The notes: generated by a model from the letters alone, not told the origin. A stretch of DNA of 64,000 nucleotides from Escherichia coli (GCF_050920415.1 NZ_CP169309.1), one strand, 5' to 3'. Counted from the stretch's first letter, positions 24,160-52,791 are shown. A program made the numbers and translations.

Positions 24160-25146
24160 CTAGTTGCCAGAAGCCAGCGAGGTTAGTTGCGCAAGCAGTT
24201 TCGCTGGTTCATCGCCTGAAAGCTGTGCGTCAACAGGCAAATACCACCAATTATCATCTGCAAAGGCCCGGCATTTCACCGCATCTTTTTCAGTCATAAC
24301 TAGCGTTTGCCCGTCGCTTACCAACGCGCTGACATCCGTATAATTCAAAGACTGATGATCGGCCAGTGGTACACATTTTTCCGGTTGTACGCCGCACATC
24401 TTCAGCGTGGCAAAAAAGCGCGGCGGATGCCCAATCCCCGCCATCGCCACCACATGTTCAAGTTGAGCAACGTCACAACGCGTACCGGTACGTAAATTCA
24501 CCGCCTGCCCCGGCAGCAGATGCATGGGGATTTCACCGCTGCGGGGGACACCGCCGTTGACGATTACCGCATCAACCGACTTTAAGCGCCCCGCTCGCTC
24601 ACGCATTGGCCCCGCCGGCAACCACCAGCCATTGCCAAAGCGACGCACGCCATCAATAACGACGATTTCAACATCACGCGCCAGACGATAATGCTGTAAA
24701 CCGTCGTCGGTTACGATGATCTGCACATCAGGGTGTTGCGCCAGAATGGCTTTTACCGCATCAGAACGCACGGGAGAAACCGCAACAGGCGCGCCAGTGC
24801 GTTGATAAATCAACACAGGTTCATCACCCGCCTGTGCTGTGGTGGTATCTACCGACAATAACAGCGGATACGATTCAGCCTTACCGCCATATCCCCGGGA
24901 CACGACTCCCACGCGAATACCGCGCTGTTGCAACTGTTCCACCAGCCAGACAACGACCGGAGTTTTTCCGTTGCCGCCAGCGGTGAGATTACCAACCACG
25001 ACAACCGGTACGGGGGCACGCCAGGCGCGCTTCAGTTTTAGTTTATAGCAAAGACGGATCGCGCCACTCACCAGACCATACAACCAGGAGAGTGGCAGCA
25101 ATAGCCGCCACAAAGGGGATTCACCAGACCAGATTTTTTCGATCAT
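24160..25146 (-). CDS. lpxK: Tetraacyldisaccharide 4'-kinase (lipid A biosynthesis)
   Basis: 328-aa ORF; P-loop [12 protein letters not shown] visible; start overlaps the msbA stop. Confidence 0.94.
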
Positions 25147-26891
25147 TGGCCAAACTGCATTTTGTGAAGTTGCGCGTAAACGCCACGGTGCTCAAGCAAA
25201 TCGTTATGCGTACCGCGTTCCACAATGACACCATCCTCGACGACCACGATTTCGTCTGCCTTTTCAATGGTAGACAAGCGGTGGGCAATCACCAGAGAGG
25301 TACGGTTTTTCTGCAACTCATCCAGTGCCGCCTGAATCGCACGTTCAGATTCGGTATCCAGCGCCGAGGTAGCTTCGTCCAGAATCAGAATCGGGCTATC
25401 ACGCAACAAGGCTCGAGCGATGGCAATACGCTGACGCTGACCGCCAGAGAGCAGCACGCCGTTTTCACCAATCACTGTATCGAGACCGTTATCCATCTTA
25501 TTGATGAAGTCCATGGCGTAGGCCATACGCGCCGCTTCTTCAATTTGCTCACGGCTGTACTGTTCTGTCCGTGCGTAAGCAATGTTGTTGGCAACCGTAT
25601 CGTTAAACAGATGGACATTCTGCGACACCAGAGCAACCTGGTTACGTAAAGACGCCAGGGTATACTCGCGCAGATCGTGACCATCCATCAGGATTTCGCC
25701 TTCATCAATATCGTAAAAACGTGTGATTAGGCTGGCGATGGTTGATTTACCTGAACCAGAGCGTCCAACCAGAGCAACCGTCTTCCCTGCCGGAATTTTC
25801 AGGTTGATGTTACGCAATGCGGGTACATCACGTCCCGGATAAGTAAAGGTGACATTGCGGAATTCTACGTCGCCAGTCGCACGCTCGATCACGCGCTTAC
25901 CTTCGTCTTTCTCCTGCTCACTGTCCAGAATGGTAAACAGCGTCTGACAAGCCGCCATACCGCGCTGGAACTGGGCGTTAACGTTGGTCAGCGATTTCAG
26001 CGGACGCATCAGTGCAATCATTGAAGAGAAAACAACGGTAATCGTACCGGCAGTCAGGCTATCCATGACGCTAGGGAAGCTCGCCGCATACAGAACAAAC
26101 GCCAGCGCTAAAGAGGCGATCAACTGAATGATCGGATCAGAGATGGAAGAGGCTGAAACCATTTTCATCCCCTGAAGACGCATTCGGTTACTGACTTTAT
26201 CGAAGCGTTTCGTTTCCACCTCCTGACCACCAAAAATCAATACTTCTTTGTGGCCCTTCAGCATTTGTTCTGCGCTGGTGGTCACCTGCCCCATGGTGTT
26301 CTGCATGTTTTTACTGATGTTGCGAAAACGCTTCGATACAACGCGAATCGCAATCGAAACAATCGGTGCCAGCACAATCAAAATGATCGACAGTTGCCAA
26401 CTGTAATAGAACATCATGATGAACAGGCCGATGATCGACGCACCTTCACGCACAACAGTAATCAGTGCGCCGGAAGAAGAAGAAGCAACCTGTTCGGAAT
26501 CGTAGGTGATACGTGACAACAGCGTACCCGTTGACTGTTTGTCAAAGAATGAAACTGGCATTCCCATCATGTGACCAAACAGGCGGCGACGCATGGTCAT
26601 TACCACCTTTCCTGATACCCAGGAGATACAGTAGCTGGAGACATAGCTGGTGATACCACGTAAAATCATCAGCCCGATCACCACCAGCGGCATCCACACC
26701 AGCACGGAGCGATCTGTTTTACCAAAGCCATCATCAAGAAGTGGCTTAAGGAGCGATAACATGAAGGTATCGCTGGCTGCGTTGAGGATTAACGCTACGC
26801 CCGCCACGATCAGACCCGCTTTAAAAGGCGCAATGGTTGGCCACAGTCGGCGGAACGTCTGCCACGTAGAGAGATCTTTGTCGTTATGCAT
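25143..26891 (-). CDS. msbA: Lipid A / LPS flippase MsbA (ABC exporter, fused permease-ATPase)
   Basis: 582-aa ORF; Walker [13 protein letters not shown] signature LSGGQRQR and six N-terminal TM segments visible. Confidence 0.97.
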
Positions 26892-26927
26892 TCAAAAAAC
26901 CAGCATTTGTTGAAATAGCCGCATATT

Positions 26928-29192
26928 CTACCCGTTATCCACTGGCACGCCAAACCACTGATGATACCAACGAGGTAAAATTTGCTCCCTGAGGCTGCTA
27001 ATCCGCCAGCCTTGCGCTGAAAAATCGACCGTTACTTGCCCCTGATGAGGAGTATCAAGCCACGTATAACCCTGTTGTTGATAGCGATGCTTAACTTTGT
27101 TAGAGGGCAGTCGCCATGCGTTATAGCGCGATGCCGATGCGAGTGCCACTTTTCCATTCACTCGCTGAATTAATGGCAACGATGATGAGGTATTACTGCC
27201 ATGGTGAGGTACCTGAAGTAATGTTGCCTGCATTTGCTGCCAGTAACGGCTTAGCATCTTTTGTTCAGCGGGGGCTTCAATATCACCGGTTAGAAGAATG
27301 CTATTCGTCCCGTCATCAATCTTAACCACACAGGAATGGTTATTTCCTTTATCGTTGCTACCTTGTAAAGGCCAGTGCGCGCTGAAACGCAATCCTTGCC
27401 ATTGCCACGCTTCGCCACGCACACAGGGCTGATGATGTTCCCAGCTTAAAGGGCTTCTGACCCATAACGTCGGCCAGGCTCGTAATATCGAGTCCAGCCC
27501 TCCCCGATGATCCAGATGTTCATGACTCAAAATGACGCCTTCTGGTTCAAGATTATGCCAGCGTAGCCAGGGGATAATCAGTTGTTGCCCACTATCCCCC
27601 TCCGGCCAGGCCAGTCCGGTGTCATAGAGAATCGCTTTACCGTTTCGCGCAATGACCATTGCCAGCCCTTGCCCGACATCAAGCATGTACACCTGCCACG
27701 CGTCAGGCCGAGGTTTTTGCCACAGCGGCCAGCACATCAGCAAGCCTCCAGCCACACACATTGCCGGCAACGCTCGCCAGGCGTTTAATCGCCATACCAC
27801 CAGTAAGAACCATGGGGAAAATGTTAGCCATTGCCAACGTTCAGCAATGTTGATCCACCCTTCCGGCAAACTCTTTAACCCCCAGAAAAGTAAAGCCAAA
27901 GACCGGTCGGCAAGAAACCATACTCCTTGTTCTACGATTAACGGCCCGCTTAAATGCATAACCATCGCTGCGAGGATCAACGGAACCGTGATAAATGTCA
28001 CCAGGGGAATTGCAAATAGGTTTGCAATAAACGAGGTCAGACTAATGCCATGAAATATGACGATTTGCACGGGCATAAGCAGGAGGGTGATTCCCAGTTG
28101 CAGATGGATGAGGGAAACAACCGCGCGCAATACCGGCGGCAGCTGCCACTCCGGACAGGGAAACCACTGATACCAAAAAATCAGTGCCGCGACCGCAGCG
28201 GCAGAGAGCCATAAACTTTGCGAGAGAATGGCAACAGGATCCATCAGCAAAATTGCCGCCAGACAACATATCCATACATCCCAGCCACTCCATTGTCGTC
28301 CACTTAACTTAAGCATTCCCCAAATGGCAAGCGCCACCACGGTACGCAATGCAGGAGGTTGCATTCCCGTTAGCCAGGCGTAAAAAGCAGCACAGCAGAT
28401 TCCACCAATTAATGGCATTTGCCAGTGGATCCAGCACCCAGGCAGAAAAACTTGCCCACCGCGAATGAGTCCTGCAGCCAGCAACGCCGCAAAAGCGATG
28501 TGCAATCCTGATATCGCCATTAAATGCGCCGTTCCAGTATCACGCATGATATTTTTGATTTCTTTGGGGACGGATAACCGTTCCCCCATACCTAATCCAA
28601 GAATAACCGCGTTCCACATATAGGGTTGCAGCGTTGTTTGTAGTGACGCCAGATACTGTGCACGCAGGCTACAATTCGGTTCAATGACACTTGCCTGCAG
28701 AAAACGCCCGGTGAGCGGTTGATGCTGGGCAATGGCATAACGCTGGCTATCAAAGCCGCCATCATTAAGTTGGCCATGAACTGCACGAACTTTGAGTTTC
28801 ATTGACCATACTTGTCCGGCACAAACCGCTTGCGGAAGATATTCGCCATACAGTACGAGGCCTGGCGCAGGGAATATACGTCGACCTTGTAGATGAGTAA
28901 TTTGACCGTAATGAGTGGTCATGCCGTCAGTAGCAATGATCTCAACAATTGCATCCTGCGTCGAGCCAGTTAAGGTTTCTCCTGCCCACAAAATTTGCTT
29001 TGCCGCTGATATGCCCCAAAGAAAAAACAGCAACGTCAGCGCGATATAACGGACGGCTTTAACACGAATAAATGCCAGTACGCAGGCGAAGATAGTCAGA
29101 AGCACAAGGGTTACTGTCCCTGGCAATTGGGGCAAAATCAGCAACGGAAAAATTCCGCAAATTATGCATACTCCGACTGTCGTTATTTTCAT
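26928..29192 (-). CDS. ycaI: ComEC/Rec2-family inner-membrane protein with C-terminal metallo-beta-lactamase domain (YcaI)
   Basis: ORF track 26928..29222; start chosen at the ATG at 29192 (MKITTVGVCIICGIF), giving 754 aa; polytopic membrane N-terminal part and C-terminal SHEHLDHRGG (HxHxDH) motif. Confidence 0.88.
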   Translation of the reverse strand: MKITTVGVCIICGIFPLLILPQLPGTVTLVLLTIFACVLAFIRVKAVRYIALTLLFFLWGISAAKQILWAGETLTGSTQDAIVEIIATDGMTTHYGQITHLQGRRIFPAPGLVLYGEYLPQAVCAGQVWSMKLKVRAVHGQLNDGGFDSQRYAIAQHQPLTGRFLQASVIEPNCSLRAQYLASLQTTLQPYMWNAVILGLGMGERLSVPKEIKNIMRDTGTAHLMAISGLHIAFAALLAAGLIRGGQVFLPGCWIHWQMPLIGGICCAAFYAWLTGMQPPALRTVVALAIWGMLKLSGRQWSGWDVWICCLAAILLMDPVAILSQSLWLSAAAVAALIFWYQWFPCPEWQLPPVLRAVVSLIHLQLGITLLLMPVQIVIFHGISLTSFIANLFAIPLVTFITVPLILAAMVMHLSGPLIVEQGVWFLADRSLALLFWGLKSLPEGWINIAERWQWLTFSPWFLLVVWRLNAWRALPAMCVAGGLLMCWPLWQKPRPDAWQVYMLDVGQGLAMVIARNGKAILYDTGLAWPEGDSGQQLIIPWLRWHNLEPEGVILSHEHLDHRGGLDSILRAWPTLWVRSPLSWEHHQPCVRGEAWQWQGLRFSAHWPLQGSNDKGNNHSCVVKIDDGTNSILLTGDIEAPAEQKMLSRYWQQMQATLLQVPHHGSNTSSSLPLIQRVNGKVALASASRYNAWRLPSNKVKHRYQQQGYTWLDTPHQGQVTVDFSAQGWRISSLREQILPRWYHQWFGVPVDNG

Positions 29193-29397
29193 GCACCCTC
29201 CCTGTTTATAGAAAGTGTGCAACTTTGTTGAATGGTTGTCTGGTGGAAGTTTTGCGTTCCCCGAGGCACGTTCAGAAGAATTTAACGACAGGGTGAAAAC
29301 TGCTCAAAACTCTGCGAGGCAGCTTCCAGTTCCAGATTAGAGAAATGAAAAAAGCACCCGACAGGTGCTTTTCTCGCGTTCAAGTTTGAGTAAAAAC

Positions 29398-29682
29398 TTA
29401 ACCGTAAATATTGGCGCGATCGCGCAGTTCTTTACCTGGTTTAAAGTGAGGAACGTATTTTCCTTCCAGTTCTACTTTATCGCCAGTCTTCGGATTACGT
29501 CCGGTACGTGGTGCGCGGTAGTGCAAAGAGAAACTGCCGAAACCGCGGATTTCAATACGCTCGCCCTGCGCAAGAGTCGAGGCCATATGCTCCAGCATCT
29601 CTTTTACTGCATCTTCAACCGTCTTGGCGGGAATGTGCGATTGCTGGGTGGCAAGTCTTTCTATCAATTCTGACTTGGTCAT
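29398..29682 (-). CDS. ihfB: Integration host factor subunit beta
   Basis: 94-aa [14 protein letters not shown]...; HU/IHF family. Confidence 0.96.
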
Positions 29683-43170: not shown

Positions 43171-43251
43171 TTTCCCCGTAAAGCGGCAACTTTATTGAGT
43201 TGCCGCTTTGTTATTCCGCGCTTCATTCTGCTACAGCGTTTTTAACACATC

Positions 43252-43842
43252 TTATAGTGCATCTACCATATCCCGTACCTGAGATAATAACGACTGATAA
43301 TAGCTCGCGTGAAGTTCTTCCCCATCGAATACCACTGTATTACACAAGAAAGTGACATCGGCATCTTCAATACCAAGATAACTGCACATATTTATCAAAT
43401 AATCGCTTATATTTTTTTCCCAGCCTATCTGGACAAATGATTCTTTGTCTCCTCCAACCAGCGCCACCCAACGAACTTTATTGAATGGTAATTTGTGCCC
43501 ATCTCCATAAGCCAGCCCATTATTCCATACTCTGTCAATATATCCTTTTAGCATTGCTGGGAAGCTGTACCACCAGAGAGGAAAAACCACCACTAACGTG
43601 TCATGTTCAAGCAGCTCTGAATAAAGCTGATGAACCTCTGGAGAATAACGTTTATCCATATTCTTCCAGTCTGGTTCATCTTCCGGCGTCATCACCGGGT
43701 TGAAATTACGCCGATATAAATCGAGTTCCGTCACCTGTATTTTCCGCTCCATTGCCCGCTGATGGATCGCATCAGCAATATGTGCGGTCAATGAATCATG
43801 ACGAGGATGGGCCCATACCAAATAAATACGTTCAGACTGCAT
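43252..43842 (-). CDS. ycaK: Flavodoxin-like-fold NAD(P)H oxidoreductase family protein YcaK
   Basis: 196-aa ORF; N-terminal pattern IYLVWAHPRHDSLT resembles NAD(P)H:quinone oxidoreductase / KefF-MdaB-like proteins (inference). Confidence 0.8.
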   Translation of the reverse strand: MQSERIYLVWAHPRHDSLTAHIADAIHQRAMERKIQVTELDLYRRNFNPVMTPEDEPDWKNMDKRYSPEVHQLYSELLEHDTLVVVFPLWWYSFPAMLKGYIDRVWNNGLAYGDGHKLPFNKVRWVALVGGDKESFVQIGWEKNISDYLINMCSYLGIEDADVTFLCNTVVFDGEELHASYYQSLLSQVRDMVDAL

Positions 43843-43941
43843 AATTTTACCTCCACGTTAAGTTCTGGAGCGCACTTTACGCAGGCGGCATCATCCTGTA
43901 AACGTGATGATTCAGGATGAGTTAATGAAGGATTTTCACTA

Positions 43942-44850
43942 ATGCGGATGAATATGTCTGACTTTGCCACTTTCTTTGCCGTGGCCCGTAATCAAAGCTT
44001 TCGTGCAGCAGGCGATGAGTTAGGCTTATCTTCGTCCGCCATTAGCCATAGTATTAAAACACTGGAACAACGTCTTAAAATTCGCTTATTCAATCGGACA
44101 ACCCGAAGCGTATCGTTAACGGAAGCGGGTTCTAATCTCTATGAACGATTGCGCCCAGCTTTCGACGAAATTCAGATCATGTTAGATGAGATGAATGATT
44201 TTCGTCTGACACCGACAGGTACGCTCAAAATCAATGCCGCCCGGGTAGCTGCACGTATATTTTTAATACCTTTACTGGTTGGTTTCACACGTGAATATCC
44301 TGATATTAAAGTCGAGCTCACAACTGACGACTCTCTTGTTGATATCGTCCAGCAGGGCTTTGACGCTGGCGTTCGACTTAGTGGCATCGTCGAAAAAGAT
44401 ATGATCAGCGTGGCGATCGGCCCGCCAGTGAAATTATGTGTAGCAGCAACGCCAGAGTACTTTGCAAGATATGGCAAACCCCGCCATCCTCATGATCTGC
44501 TTAATCATCAATGTGTTGTTTTTCGTTATCCCAGCGGCAAACCTTTCCACTGGCAATTTGCAAAGGAGCTGGAAATTGCTGTCGCAGGAAATATCATTCT
44601 GGATGATGTTGATGCTGAACTGGATGCCGTTTTGATGGGTGCTGGTATCGGGTATCTGCTCTATGAACAGATCAAGGAGTACCTTGATACCGGTCGTTTA
44701 GAATGTGTACTGGAAGACTGGATCACAGAGCGTCCAGGCTTCCAGATCTATTACCCAAACCGCCAGTATATGTCCTGCGGCTTGCGCGCATTTCTCGATT
44801 ATGTAAAAACGGGTCAGATCTGCCAGAGTCAGCGTCACCGACCACAATAA
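43942..44850 (+). CDS. ycaN: LysR-type transcriptional regulator YcaN
   Basis: 302-aa ORF; N-terminal HTH typical of LTTRs (FRAAGDELGLSSSAISHSIKTLEQRLKIRLFNRTTR); divergent from ycaK. Confidence 0.88.
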   Translation: MRMNMSDFATFFAVARNQSFRAAGDELGLSSSAISHSIKTLEQRLKIRLFNRTTRSVSLTEAGSNLYERLRPAFDEIQIMLDEMNDFRLTPTGTLKINAARVAARIFLIPLLVGFTREYPDIKVELTTDDSLVDIVQQGFDAGVRLSGIVEKDMISVAIGPPVKLCVAATPEYFARYGKPRHPHDLLNHQCVVFRYPSGKPFHWQFAKELEIAVAGNIILDDVDAELDAVLMGAGIGYLLYEQIKEYLDTGRLECVLEDWITERPGFQIYYPNRQYMSCGLRAFLDYVKTGQICQSQRHRPQ

Positions 44851-46281
44851 TTATTTGCTATTCGCTTTACGCGCCAGCAGCGGGAATATCAGCCCTAATC
44901 CCACCAGCACAAACGGCGTTGCAACATTCAGCGCCAACTGGAATGTCCACTCTGCGGTGAAGGCTTCCATTTTCGGGAAAATACCCGTCAGGCAGGCAAA
45001 AGCGGTAAAGGCAAAACACCAAATTCCGACGGTCATTGCCAGCGGCTTATTACGAATAAAGACATATTCCGGCTTATATTTCTGCGCCAGGCGAACAACT
45101 GCAATAAATGCAACAAATACCCATAAATAACGCAGCGGCATCACTACCGAGTTAAGGTTCAACAGCCATTTATAGAGATTGTTCATATCACCGATGCCGA
45201 GAGTCGGCAGCATAATCAGGATCGCCACCAGCACCAGGGTCAGAAAATAGCCATTAACGGGCGTACCAGATGCGTTGGTACGACATAAACTGGCAGGAAT
45301 ATATTTGCTGTCAGCATCGCCTAATAATACTTTAAGCGGCGCATCAATCGAGAATACCAGCGCAGCTACTTGACCCAGAGTATTCGCAATGGCGTAAATC
45401 ACCATTAAAGTATTACCCATGCTGTAATACTCGCCCAGCTTCTGGAAGGCGTAATACTGGCCGTTGGTCATTAAGTCATCGGGAATATTGCGGGAGTCAA
45501 ACATCATCCCCATTGCAAGCGATCCAAGGATCGCGCACACCGCAACCATCACCGCCAGGCATAACATCCCTTTTGGAAATTCTTTTCCTGGGTTGCGCGT
45601 TTGATTAACGTAGGGAGAAATCTTCTCTGCTCCACCAACCGCAAAGACCAGCATTGAAATAGTGGTAATGTAGGTAAAGTCGATATGAGGAATAAACGTT
45701 TCCCAGGTAATGTTTGTGGTCGCAATATGCACTTCAGTAATCGCAGGCGCGGTTACCGCCATCGCCACATACAGGAGCGACATAACAAACATCGCAATCC
45801 CTGCCACAGAACCGACGATTTTCAGCGATTTCATACCGCGTGAAGCAACCCACATAAAGAAGACAAACAGCACCAGCGTTAACCCCTGTAACGCTACGAC
45901 GGAATATTCTTTGATTAGCGAACCGTCGCCTTTCATCGCCCAACCGAGCGCAATCAGTATTGCCTGGGGTTTTTGTGCCAGATAGGGAATATGCACTACC
46001 CAGTAGGTCCACGCGGCGAGGTAAGCCAGTCCGGGTCCCATCGTGTGTTTAATCCAGGTACTGACCCCGCCCTTCCCATCTTTGAAGGTCGAGCCTAACT
46101 GACCAACAATTAGCGCATAAGGTGTGAAATAGAGCGCAAAGATAAACACCCATGAAAAAACAACCACCAGCCCCTGGTTGGCGTAGTTATTAACAACGTT
46201 GCCAAAACCCCAGACAGTGATAAAAGACATCAGCGCAATGTTGTACCATCGCAGCTGTTTTTCCTGAACATTCCCAGCCAT
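44851..46281 (-). CDS. ycaM: APC-superfamily putative amino acid / polyamine transporter YcaM
   Basis: ORF track 44851..46473; start chosen at the ATG at 46281 (MAGNVQEKQLRWYNIALMSF), giving 476 aa; about 12 TM segments. Confidence 0.82.
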   Translation of the reverse strand: MAGNVQEKQLRWYNIALMSFITVWGFGNVVNNYANQGLVVVFSWVFIFALYFTPYALIVGQLGSTFKDGKGGVSTWIKHTMGPGLAYLAAWTYWVVHIPYLAQKPQAILIALGWAMKGDGSLIKEYSVVALQGLTLVLFVFFMWVASRGMKSLKIVGSVAGIAMFVMSLLYVAMAVTAPAITEVHIATTNITWETFIPHIDFTYITTISMLVFAVGGAEKISPYVNQTRNPGKEFPKGMLCLAVMVAVCAILGSLAMGMMFDSRNIPDDLMTNGQYYAFQKLGEYYSMGNTLMVIYAIANTLGQVAALVFSIDAPLKVLLGDADSKYIPASLCRTNASGTPVNGYFLTLVLVAILIMLPTLGIGDMNNLYKWLLNLNSVVMPLRYLWVFVAFIAVVRLAQKYKPEYVFIRNKPLAMTVGIWCFAFTAFACLTGIFPKMEAFTAEWTFQLALNVATPFVLVGLGLIFPLLARKANSK

Positions 46282-52553: not shown

Positions 52554-52723
52554 AATGGCTCACTCAAGCTTGCTCACGATTGATTCCAGTAACAAACCGT
52601 ATTGTGTAATTATTTCTATAGCAGGTCGCTATATAGGTTTGTATACATCGAATGATTTGAAAATCAAAGAGATAGGCAGATTTTCACTCGAAAGTAGTAT
52701 TACGTGTAAGTGAGGAGTAATTA

Positions 52724-52737
52724 TTGTTCGGTATCAA
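52724..52737 (-). promoter_or_regulatory. Candidate FNR box of the dmsABC promoter (minus-strand TTGATaccgAACAA)
   Basis: Seen directly: TTGTTcggtATCAA on the plus strand, a near-consensus FNR site (TTGAT-N4-ATCAA) in the serS-dmsA intergenic region; the dms operon is known to be FNR-dependent. The distance to the dmsA ATG (~170 bp) implies a long leader. Confidence 0.45.
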
Positions 52738-52745
52738 AGGGAGAC

Positions 52746-52771
52746 AAAAAAAGCGCCCGAAGGCGCTTTTT
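52746..52771 (-). terminator. Candidate rho-independent terminator downstream of serS (symmetric, possibly bidirectional)
   Basis: Seen directly: AAAAAAAGCGCCCGAAGGCGCTTTTTAG, a GC stem flanked by A- and T-runs, just after the serS stop. Confidence 0.7.
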
Positions 52772-52791
52772 AGATTCAGAAAAATTGGGTA

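Follow-up and report, generated by a model that had tools for sequence, protein, structure and literature searches.

The nuclease domain of ComEC has been dissected by mutagenesis in M. glycerini, for which nuclease activity is lost or strongly reduced upon the substitutions H598A, D600A, D602A, H603A, and D700A, and residues H725 and S728 are known as substrate contacts (PMC12455585). With the exception of S728, the equivalent ComEC mutations abolish transformation in vivo, as found in the same work on M. glycerini and L. pneumophila (PMC12455585). In E. coli, ycaI has been named the ComEC/Rec2 homologue ever since competence regulons were compared (PMC1635313), and most competence homologues of this bacterium carry CRP-S sites and are induced by Sxy and CRP (PMC1635313, PMC6728893). 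The initial annotation of the DNA described here referred to E. coli as a species not regarded as naturally transformable. This description needs to be relaxed in part, because expression of Sxy gives rise to DNA uptake, which is low in level, hofQ-dependent as assayed using a hofQ mutant, and barely detectable even under Sxy over-expression (PMC3330819).

With respect to YcaI itself, neither a biochemical or genetic test in Sxy-induced DNA uptake nor a report of metal-dependent DNase activity was found in the searched literature. Spontaneous transformation with plasmids on agar, believed to follow a dsDNA route, does not require ycaI. A nutritional role proposed for the competence homologues is disputed (PMC6135910), and whether and why E. 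coli uses its intact competence genes in nature is a long-standing question, to which the ycaI locus adds no new handle. Here we describe this locus within a stretch of 64,000 nucleotides of E. coli DNA (GCF_050920415.1, NZ_CP169309.1), hereafter the window, with positions counted from its first letter.

Gene organization of the ycaI locus

By ORF search and translation, the ycaI coding sequence was located on the minus strand at 26928..29192, encoding 754 amino acid residues plus the stop codon. The longest frame begins at a TTG codon at 29222, but a Shine-Dalgarno sequence, GGGAGGG at 29196..29202 on the same strand, lies ahead of the ATG at 29192. This Shine-Dalgarno sequence is kept in five genera, as is the stretch ACAGGGAGG together with the ATG in the alignment. 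The ATG at 29192 is also the RefSeq start on the 100%-identical E. coli strain MFDS1022581 (WP_001354880.1, 2265 nt), and RefSeq gives the label "ycaI: ComEC family protein" at exactly these coordinates. The identity and the family assignment of ycaI as the ComEC/Rec2 homologue of E. coli are already known from both the literature and RefSeq.

The ycaI gene is flanked by msbA (25143-26891) on its downstream side and by ihfB (29398-29682) on its upstream side, all on the same strand, and the order in the direction of transcription is cmk, rpsA, ihfB, ycaI, msbA, lpxK, and ycaQ. Altogether the ORF, Pfam, and RefSeq data bear out the initial annotation, which gave no strand, with respect to a ComEC-like protein of 754 residues, its location between msbA and ihfB, and its SHEHLDHRGG sequence. 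The adjacency to ihfB had also been pointed out as a curiosity. Between ihfB and ycaI, however, lies a strong intrinsic terminator of ihfB at 29347..29375 (minus strand), consisting of a 13-pair stem followed by a T-run and kept in all genera aligned. As this terminator splits ihfB from ycaI, the adjacency of the two genes carries no functional signal.

Several other features were noted elsewhere in the window. At about 43250-45180, in the pflA-ycaN interval, an NAD(P)H oxidoreductase gene is interrupted by an IS2 element (IS3 family) whose transposase is frameshifted, leaving two pseudogene fragments; the coordinates were transferred from the identical RefSeq record. Rfam searches gave naRNA4, a REP-derived nucleoid-associated ncRNA, at 291-369 on the minus strand, and the enterobacterial sRNA STnc130, matched over its full length, at 52644-52778 on the plus strand (138.8 bits). 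The 16-mer CGCGTCAAGCGTCGCA is found at both 303-318 and 412-427, 109 nt apart, and this recurrence suggests a tandem REP/BIME-type repeat cluster in the naRNA4 region. The difference in length of ycaL, 262 versus 254 residues, comes only from an upstream in-frame ATG, and RefSeq gives 765 nt in both cases.

Domain organization of YcaI

YcaI was matched over its entire length (residues 1-754) by the enterobacterial ComEC family model NF008580, with a score of 1304.6 bits against the cutoff of 969, and the TIGR00361 ComEC_Rec2 model was covered completely (model positions 1-663 of 663) at 1090.9 bits against the cutoff of 190. The family is large, and 43,339 cluster representatives were detected at E values of 0.001 or less. 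Among Pfam domains, the Competence domain PF03772 was found at residues 201-467 (27792..28592, minus strand) with an E value of 1.3e-52, and this segment carries the channel signature TGTAHLMAISGLH. Lactamase_B (PF00753) was found at residues 505-686 with an E value of 3.7e-24. The initial annotation had proposed a competence domain and a metallo-beta-lactamase (MBL) domain, and had taken truncation of the former as evidence against its reading. Both domains were found, and the Competence domain is complete, the match to PF03772 extending from model position 2 to 265 of 270.

The structure of YcaI was then modelled with AlphaFold2 using an alignment of 80 sequences, and the model had a mean pLDDT of 93.4 and a pTM of 0.90. 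It consists of three N-terminal helices, a five-stranded domain at residues 78-171, a helical bundle at 176-491, and an alpha/beta domain at 499-737; the block pLDDT was 85-95 over the N-terminal helices and the OB region. The N-terminal helices (3-18, 26-40, and 45-73) coincide with hydropathy peaks and are predicted to form three transmembrane (TM) helices within residues 1-73 (28974..29192, minus strand). The five-stranded domain (28680..28961, minus strand), with strands at 78-88, 93-101, 111-115, 128-137, and 160-171 and a short helix at 149-155, is predicted to be the periplasmic OB fold. In Pfam, this DUF4131 match reached an E value of 5.2e-6 and 26.7 bits, which is below the gathering score of 31.6. 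An OB fold preceded by three TM helices, the arrangement that marks a ComEC protein, was thus found in the AlphaFold model, the DUF4131 match itself being sub-threshold.

[quoted passage not shown] Asn143 of the OB fold is invariant in the 80 homologues, and N143, G145, D148, Q150, and R151 are invariant in 21 Enterobacteriaceae sequences. In the Competence domain, H223, I227, S228, G229, H231, Y271, R283, P319, N391, and P404 are invariant in all 80 homologues.

The C-terminal domain at residues 499-737 (26982..27698, minus strand) was assigned as an MBL-like nuclease domain by PF00753, by phmmer matches to 9ic4 and 30bt, and by Foldseek. In the Foldseek search against PDB, the best match was 9ic4, the nuclease domain of M. 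glycerini ComEC, with a target TM score of 0.82 and an rmsd of 2.6 A over 264 columns; the superposition with ComEC refers to this domain only. The matches following 9ic4 were phosphorylcholine esterase Pce, RNase J/CPSF73-type nucleases, and a phosphodiesterase. These results identify YcaI as a full-length member of the ComEC/Rec2 family.

Metal ligands of the nuclease domain

For the examination of the metal ligands, we used as comparator the nuclease domain 9ic4 of M. glycerini ComEC, which has been both crystallised and mutagenised, in place of B. subtilis ComEC. The sequence SHEHLDHRGG corresponds to YcaI residues 556-565. Within it, HEHLDH (27507..27524, minus strand) represents MBL motif 2, H557-x-H559-x-D561-H562, and is aligned with H598-x-D600-x-D602-H603 of M. 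glycerini. By phmmer alignment, the M. glycerini residues H598, D600, D602, H603, D700, H725, and S728 correspond to H557, H559, D561, H562, D637, H663, and S666 of YcaI, respectively. Six of these, H557, D561, H562, D637, H663, and S666, are invariant in the 80 homologues, which are 25-73% identical, and the same holds for D505, D524, N617, and S620. Both the alignment with 9ic4 and the set of 80 homologues indicate that the metal ligands are intact, with His in place of Asp at position 559; the loss of metal-binding residues, which had been considered a sign against the ComEC reading, was not observed.

Position 559 (codon 27516-27518) is occupied by Asp in 58 of the 80 homologues and by His in the other 22, and the His variant belongs essentially to an Enterobacterales-like clade. 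The E. coli YcaI protein has the canonical MBL sequence HxHxDH, whereas most ComEC proteins have HxDxDH, and His and Asp are both able to bind metal. With His instead of Asp at the second residue of motif 2, the nuclease could differ in its metal preference or its regulation. The replacement might contribute to the inefficiency of Sxy-induced uptake, or mark a shift to DNA scavenging instead of transformation, and we consider such an effect unlikely.

Conservation and selection of ycaI

Compared with the K-12 sequence, ycaI shows 94.7% nucleotide identity and 44 amino acid changes, with dN/dS of 0.20 and dS of 0.146. Both values are the highest of the neighborhood, in which dN/dS against K-12 ranges from 0 (msbA, ihfB, and rpsA) to 0.10 (lpxK and ycaQ). 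None of the 44 substitutions falls on an invariant site, and their density is highest within the first 70 residues. Homologues of 60-73% identity from Citrobacter, Enterobacter, Kosakonia, Lelliottia, and other genera also have 754 residues.

The 2.8-kb region was found in one piece, to at least 80%, in 5424 of 5426 complete E. coli genomes. One of the two genomes lacking the region in one piece is E. coli 90-3040 (NZ_CP027459.1, 2296142-2299779), whose split copy was the one inspected. Here the end of a Mu-like prophage carrying Com and a DNA cytosine methyltransferase interrupts ycaI after about 408 codons. Sporadic truncated ycaI alleles also occur, and these truncations together with the prophage-disrupted allele indicate that ycaI is dispensable in some lineages. 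Shorter protein clusters of 611, 528, and 481 residues, with hundreds to thousands of members, were considered as evidence of a lineage-wide pseudogene. This interpretation was rejected because the members of these clusters are fragments of various kinds, often labelled partial, and each of them occurs on few contigs; they reflect contig ends and sporadic mutations. Altogether these observations indicate that ycaI is under purifying selection, which is weaker than that on its neighbors, and is lost occasionally.

Putative regulatory sequences at both ends of ycaI

The E. coli CRP-S motif is asymmetric, T4G5C6G7A8-N6-T15T16C17C18A19, as Sinha 2009 is quoted in PMC6728893. An exact match, TGCGAGGCAGCTTCCA, was identified at 29313..29328 on the plus strand, with GGCAGC between TGCGA and TTCCA, as a candidate site for Sxy-dependent CRP. 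The site lies in the 205-nt spacer separating ihfB and ycaI, downstream of the ihfB terminator, and its center is located about 128 nt upstream of the ycaI ATG. This is the only exact match of TGCGA-N6-TTCCA in the 64-kb window, the calculated chance expectation being about 0.1 matches in 128 kb of sequence. K-12, Citrobacter, and the locus of a 70%-identical homologue (L002) have an exact match equally far from the start codon, and the footprint with its GAA...CGCA core persists in Klebsiella and Enterobacter in the five-genus alignment. For a palindromic pattern, TGCGA-N6-TCGCA with up to two mismatches, 42 matches were obtained where 45 were expected; this pattern was uninformative and was dropped for the asymmetric published motif. 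By consensus scan, no good sigma-70 promoter was found between the CRP-S site and the ycaI ATG. The candidate site fits the published induction of E. coli competence homologues by Sxy and CRP, and we infer that ycaI itself would be Sxy-dependent.

At the other end of the gene, a consensus scan predicted a sigma-70-like promoter for msbA-lpxK at 26925..26953 (minus strand), composed of the -35 sequence TTGGCG, a 17-nt spacer, and the -10 sequence TAGAAT, of which TAG is the stop codon of ycaI. In five genera, the DNA of the last 70 nt or so of the gene and of the 36-nt spacer leading to msbA (26892-26927) is almost invariant, and the promoter stretch and spacer are largely kept even where the adjacent homologue has only 36% protein identity. 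The two elements probably act as promoter and 5' leader of msbA-lpxK. Knock-outs of ycaI are viable, and ycaI has been used as a neutral marker site (PMC8151780). The predicted internal promoter would explain why insertions in ycaI are tolerated despite the essential nature of msbA (PMC8151780).

Such a conserved control region raises the question whether ycaI is a decaying relic without protein function of its own, kept for the promoter and 5' region of the essential msbA-lpxK genes and for read-through transcription into this operon. The near-invariant DNA around the promoter overlapping its stop codon agrees with this interpretation, and so do the dN/dS and dS values being the highest of the neighborhood, the viability of knock-outs with use of the gene as a neutral marker site (PMC8151780), and the sporadic truncated alleles. 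The constraint by the promoter, however, covers only the last 25 codons or so, while the entire frame of 754 codons remains open and unchanged in length in genera with identities as low as 60%. Its dN/dS of 0.20 is far below neutrality, and the invariant catalytic and channel residues are spread over 500 codons. Conservation of the competence-type candidate CRP-S site upstream of ycaI also argues against decay. A relic of this kind is quite improbable, and the evidence for it is weak.

Proposed role of YcaI in DNA uptake

With its orthology, complete domains, intact ligands, purifying selection, and conserved CRP-S motif, all observed in this analysis, YcaI is probably the functional inner-membrane ssDNA importer and nuclease of the cryptic, Sxy-induced competence system of E. 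coli. Both its nuclease activity and its ssDNA translocation are proposed here by analogy, the mechanism being modelled on solved and mutagenised ComEC proteins. As the inner-membrane part of the type-IV-pilus-dependent DNA-uptake machinery, YcaI would engage, through its periplasmic OB fold, the dsDNA brought into the periplasm. One strand would be degraded by the MBL-fold domain via a binuclear metal center formed by H557, H559, D561, H562, and D637, with H663 and S666 contacting the substrate, and the other strand may pass as ssDNA into the cytoplasm through the channel of the Competence-domain helices. Expression of ycaI is probably low unless cAMP-CRP and Sxy (TfoX) act at the upstream CRP-S site. 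The ycaI transcript may read into msbA-lpxK-ycaQ, while msbA would also be served by its own predicted promoter inside the 3' end of ycaI. The initial annotation suggested that nuclease or DNA-import activity could be retained by the protein, and at the sequence level this suggestion has good support.

The linkage with msbA could also be read in a different way. Since ycaI shares a transcript with lipid A genes (PMC10328246), YcaI of Enterobacteriaceae might have been re-purposed for an envelope role tied to msbA/lpxK, for instance as a phosphodiesterase whose substrate is a lipid or another envelope component and not DNA. After the ComEC domain, Pce and a phosphodiesterase are indeed the nearest structural neighbors of the MBL domain, and the clade carries His for Asp at the second position of motif 2. 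In addition, a 2026 study reported for a ycaI nonsense mutant of DH5alpha a lower efficiency of both chemical and ultrasound transformation, together with altered permeability read-outs (PMC12844161). These phenotypes of the mutant, however, could be polar effects on msbA. The order ihfB-comEC-(msbA-like), including the 36-nt spacer, is also found for the 36%-identical homologue, which has an ordinary HxDxDH motif. Likewise, rec-2 of H. influenzae, whose role in DNA uptake is proven, was described along with an msbA homologue, according to the title of Clifton 1994 as given in PMC5031224. The synteny with msbA is thus ancestral and gives no sign of a new function. Furthermore, the OB-fold and channel residues common to true ComEC proteins are all retained in YcaI. 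Re-purposing for the envelope is very improbable and, as with the relic, the case for it is weak.

For YcaI as a DNA importer, the intact set of residues bears on the low DNA uptake of E. coli. Since none of the known catalytic or channel residues is missing from YcaI, an obviously defective ComEC is an unlikely cause of this low uptake. Beyond what was known, the present analysis makes minor additions, namely the ligand-by-ligand check, the Asp-to-His variant of the clade, and the exact and conserved CRP-S match with the embedded msbA promoter.

Comparison with known ComEC proteins

Among proteins of known structure, the gamma-proteobacterial ComEC/Rec2 entries 9vc9, 9vcb, and 9vcf (cf. H. 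influenzae Rec2) align with YcaI over residues 108-747 or so at an E value of 2e-77. They share with YcaI the three domains, the (T/A)GTxHLxAISGLH signature, the PHHGS motif, and the C-terminal WY motif. At motif 2, the deposited chains read SHGANAH, whereas their natural relatives read SHGDNDH (HxDxDH) and YcaI has HxHxDH. Natural loss of the motif in these closest PDB relatives was considered and rejected in view of the SHGDNDH sequence of the natural relatives. The SHGANAH sequence is probably an engineered, catalytically dead Asp-to-Ala double mutant of SHGDNDH, and caution is needed before 9vc9, 9vcb, and 9vcf are cited as natural motif loss.

For the Moorella/Neomoorella ComEC, represented by the nuclease domain 9ic4 and the full-length cryo-EM structure 30bt, the MBL domain of YcaI superposes on 9ic4, and all the mutagenised catalytic and substrate positions are conserved except for His in place of Asp at 559. 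The identity between the Moorella nuclease domain and YcaI is only about 26%. As the Moorella residue D600, a ligand of Mn2+, corresponds to H559 of YcaI, the Mn2+ dependence of the Moorella enzyme cannot be assumed for YcaI. In the cryo-EM structure of N. carbonis ComEC, the OB fold follows three TM helices and has a helix inserted between its strands IV and V, and the same arrangement is found in the model of YcaI. With respect to regulation, the site upstream of ycaI matches exactly the asymmetric motif of the E. coli CRP-S regulon, which includes ppdD, hofMNOPQ, ybaV/comEA, sxy, and others.
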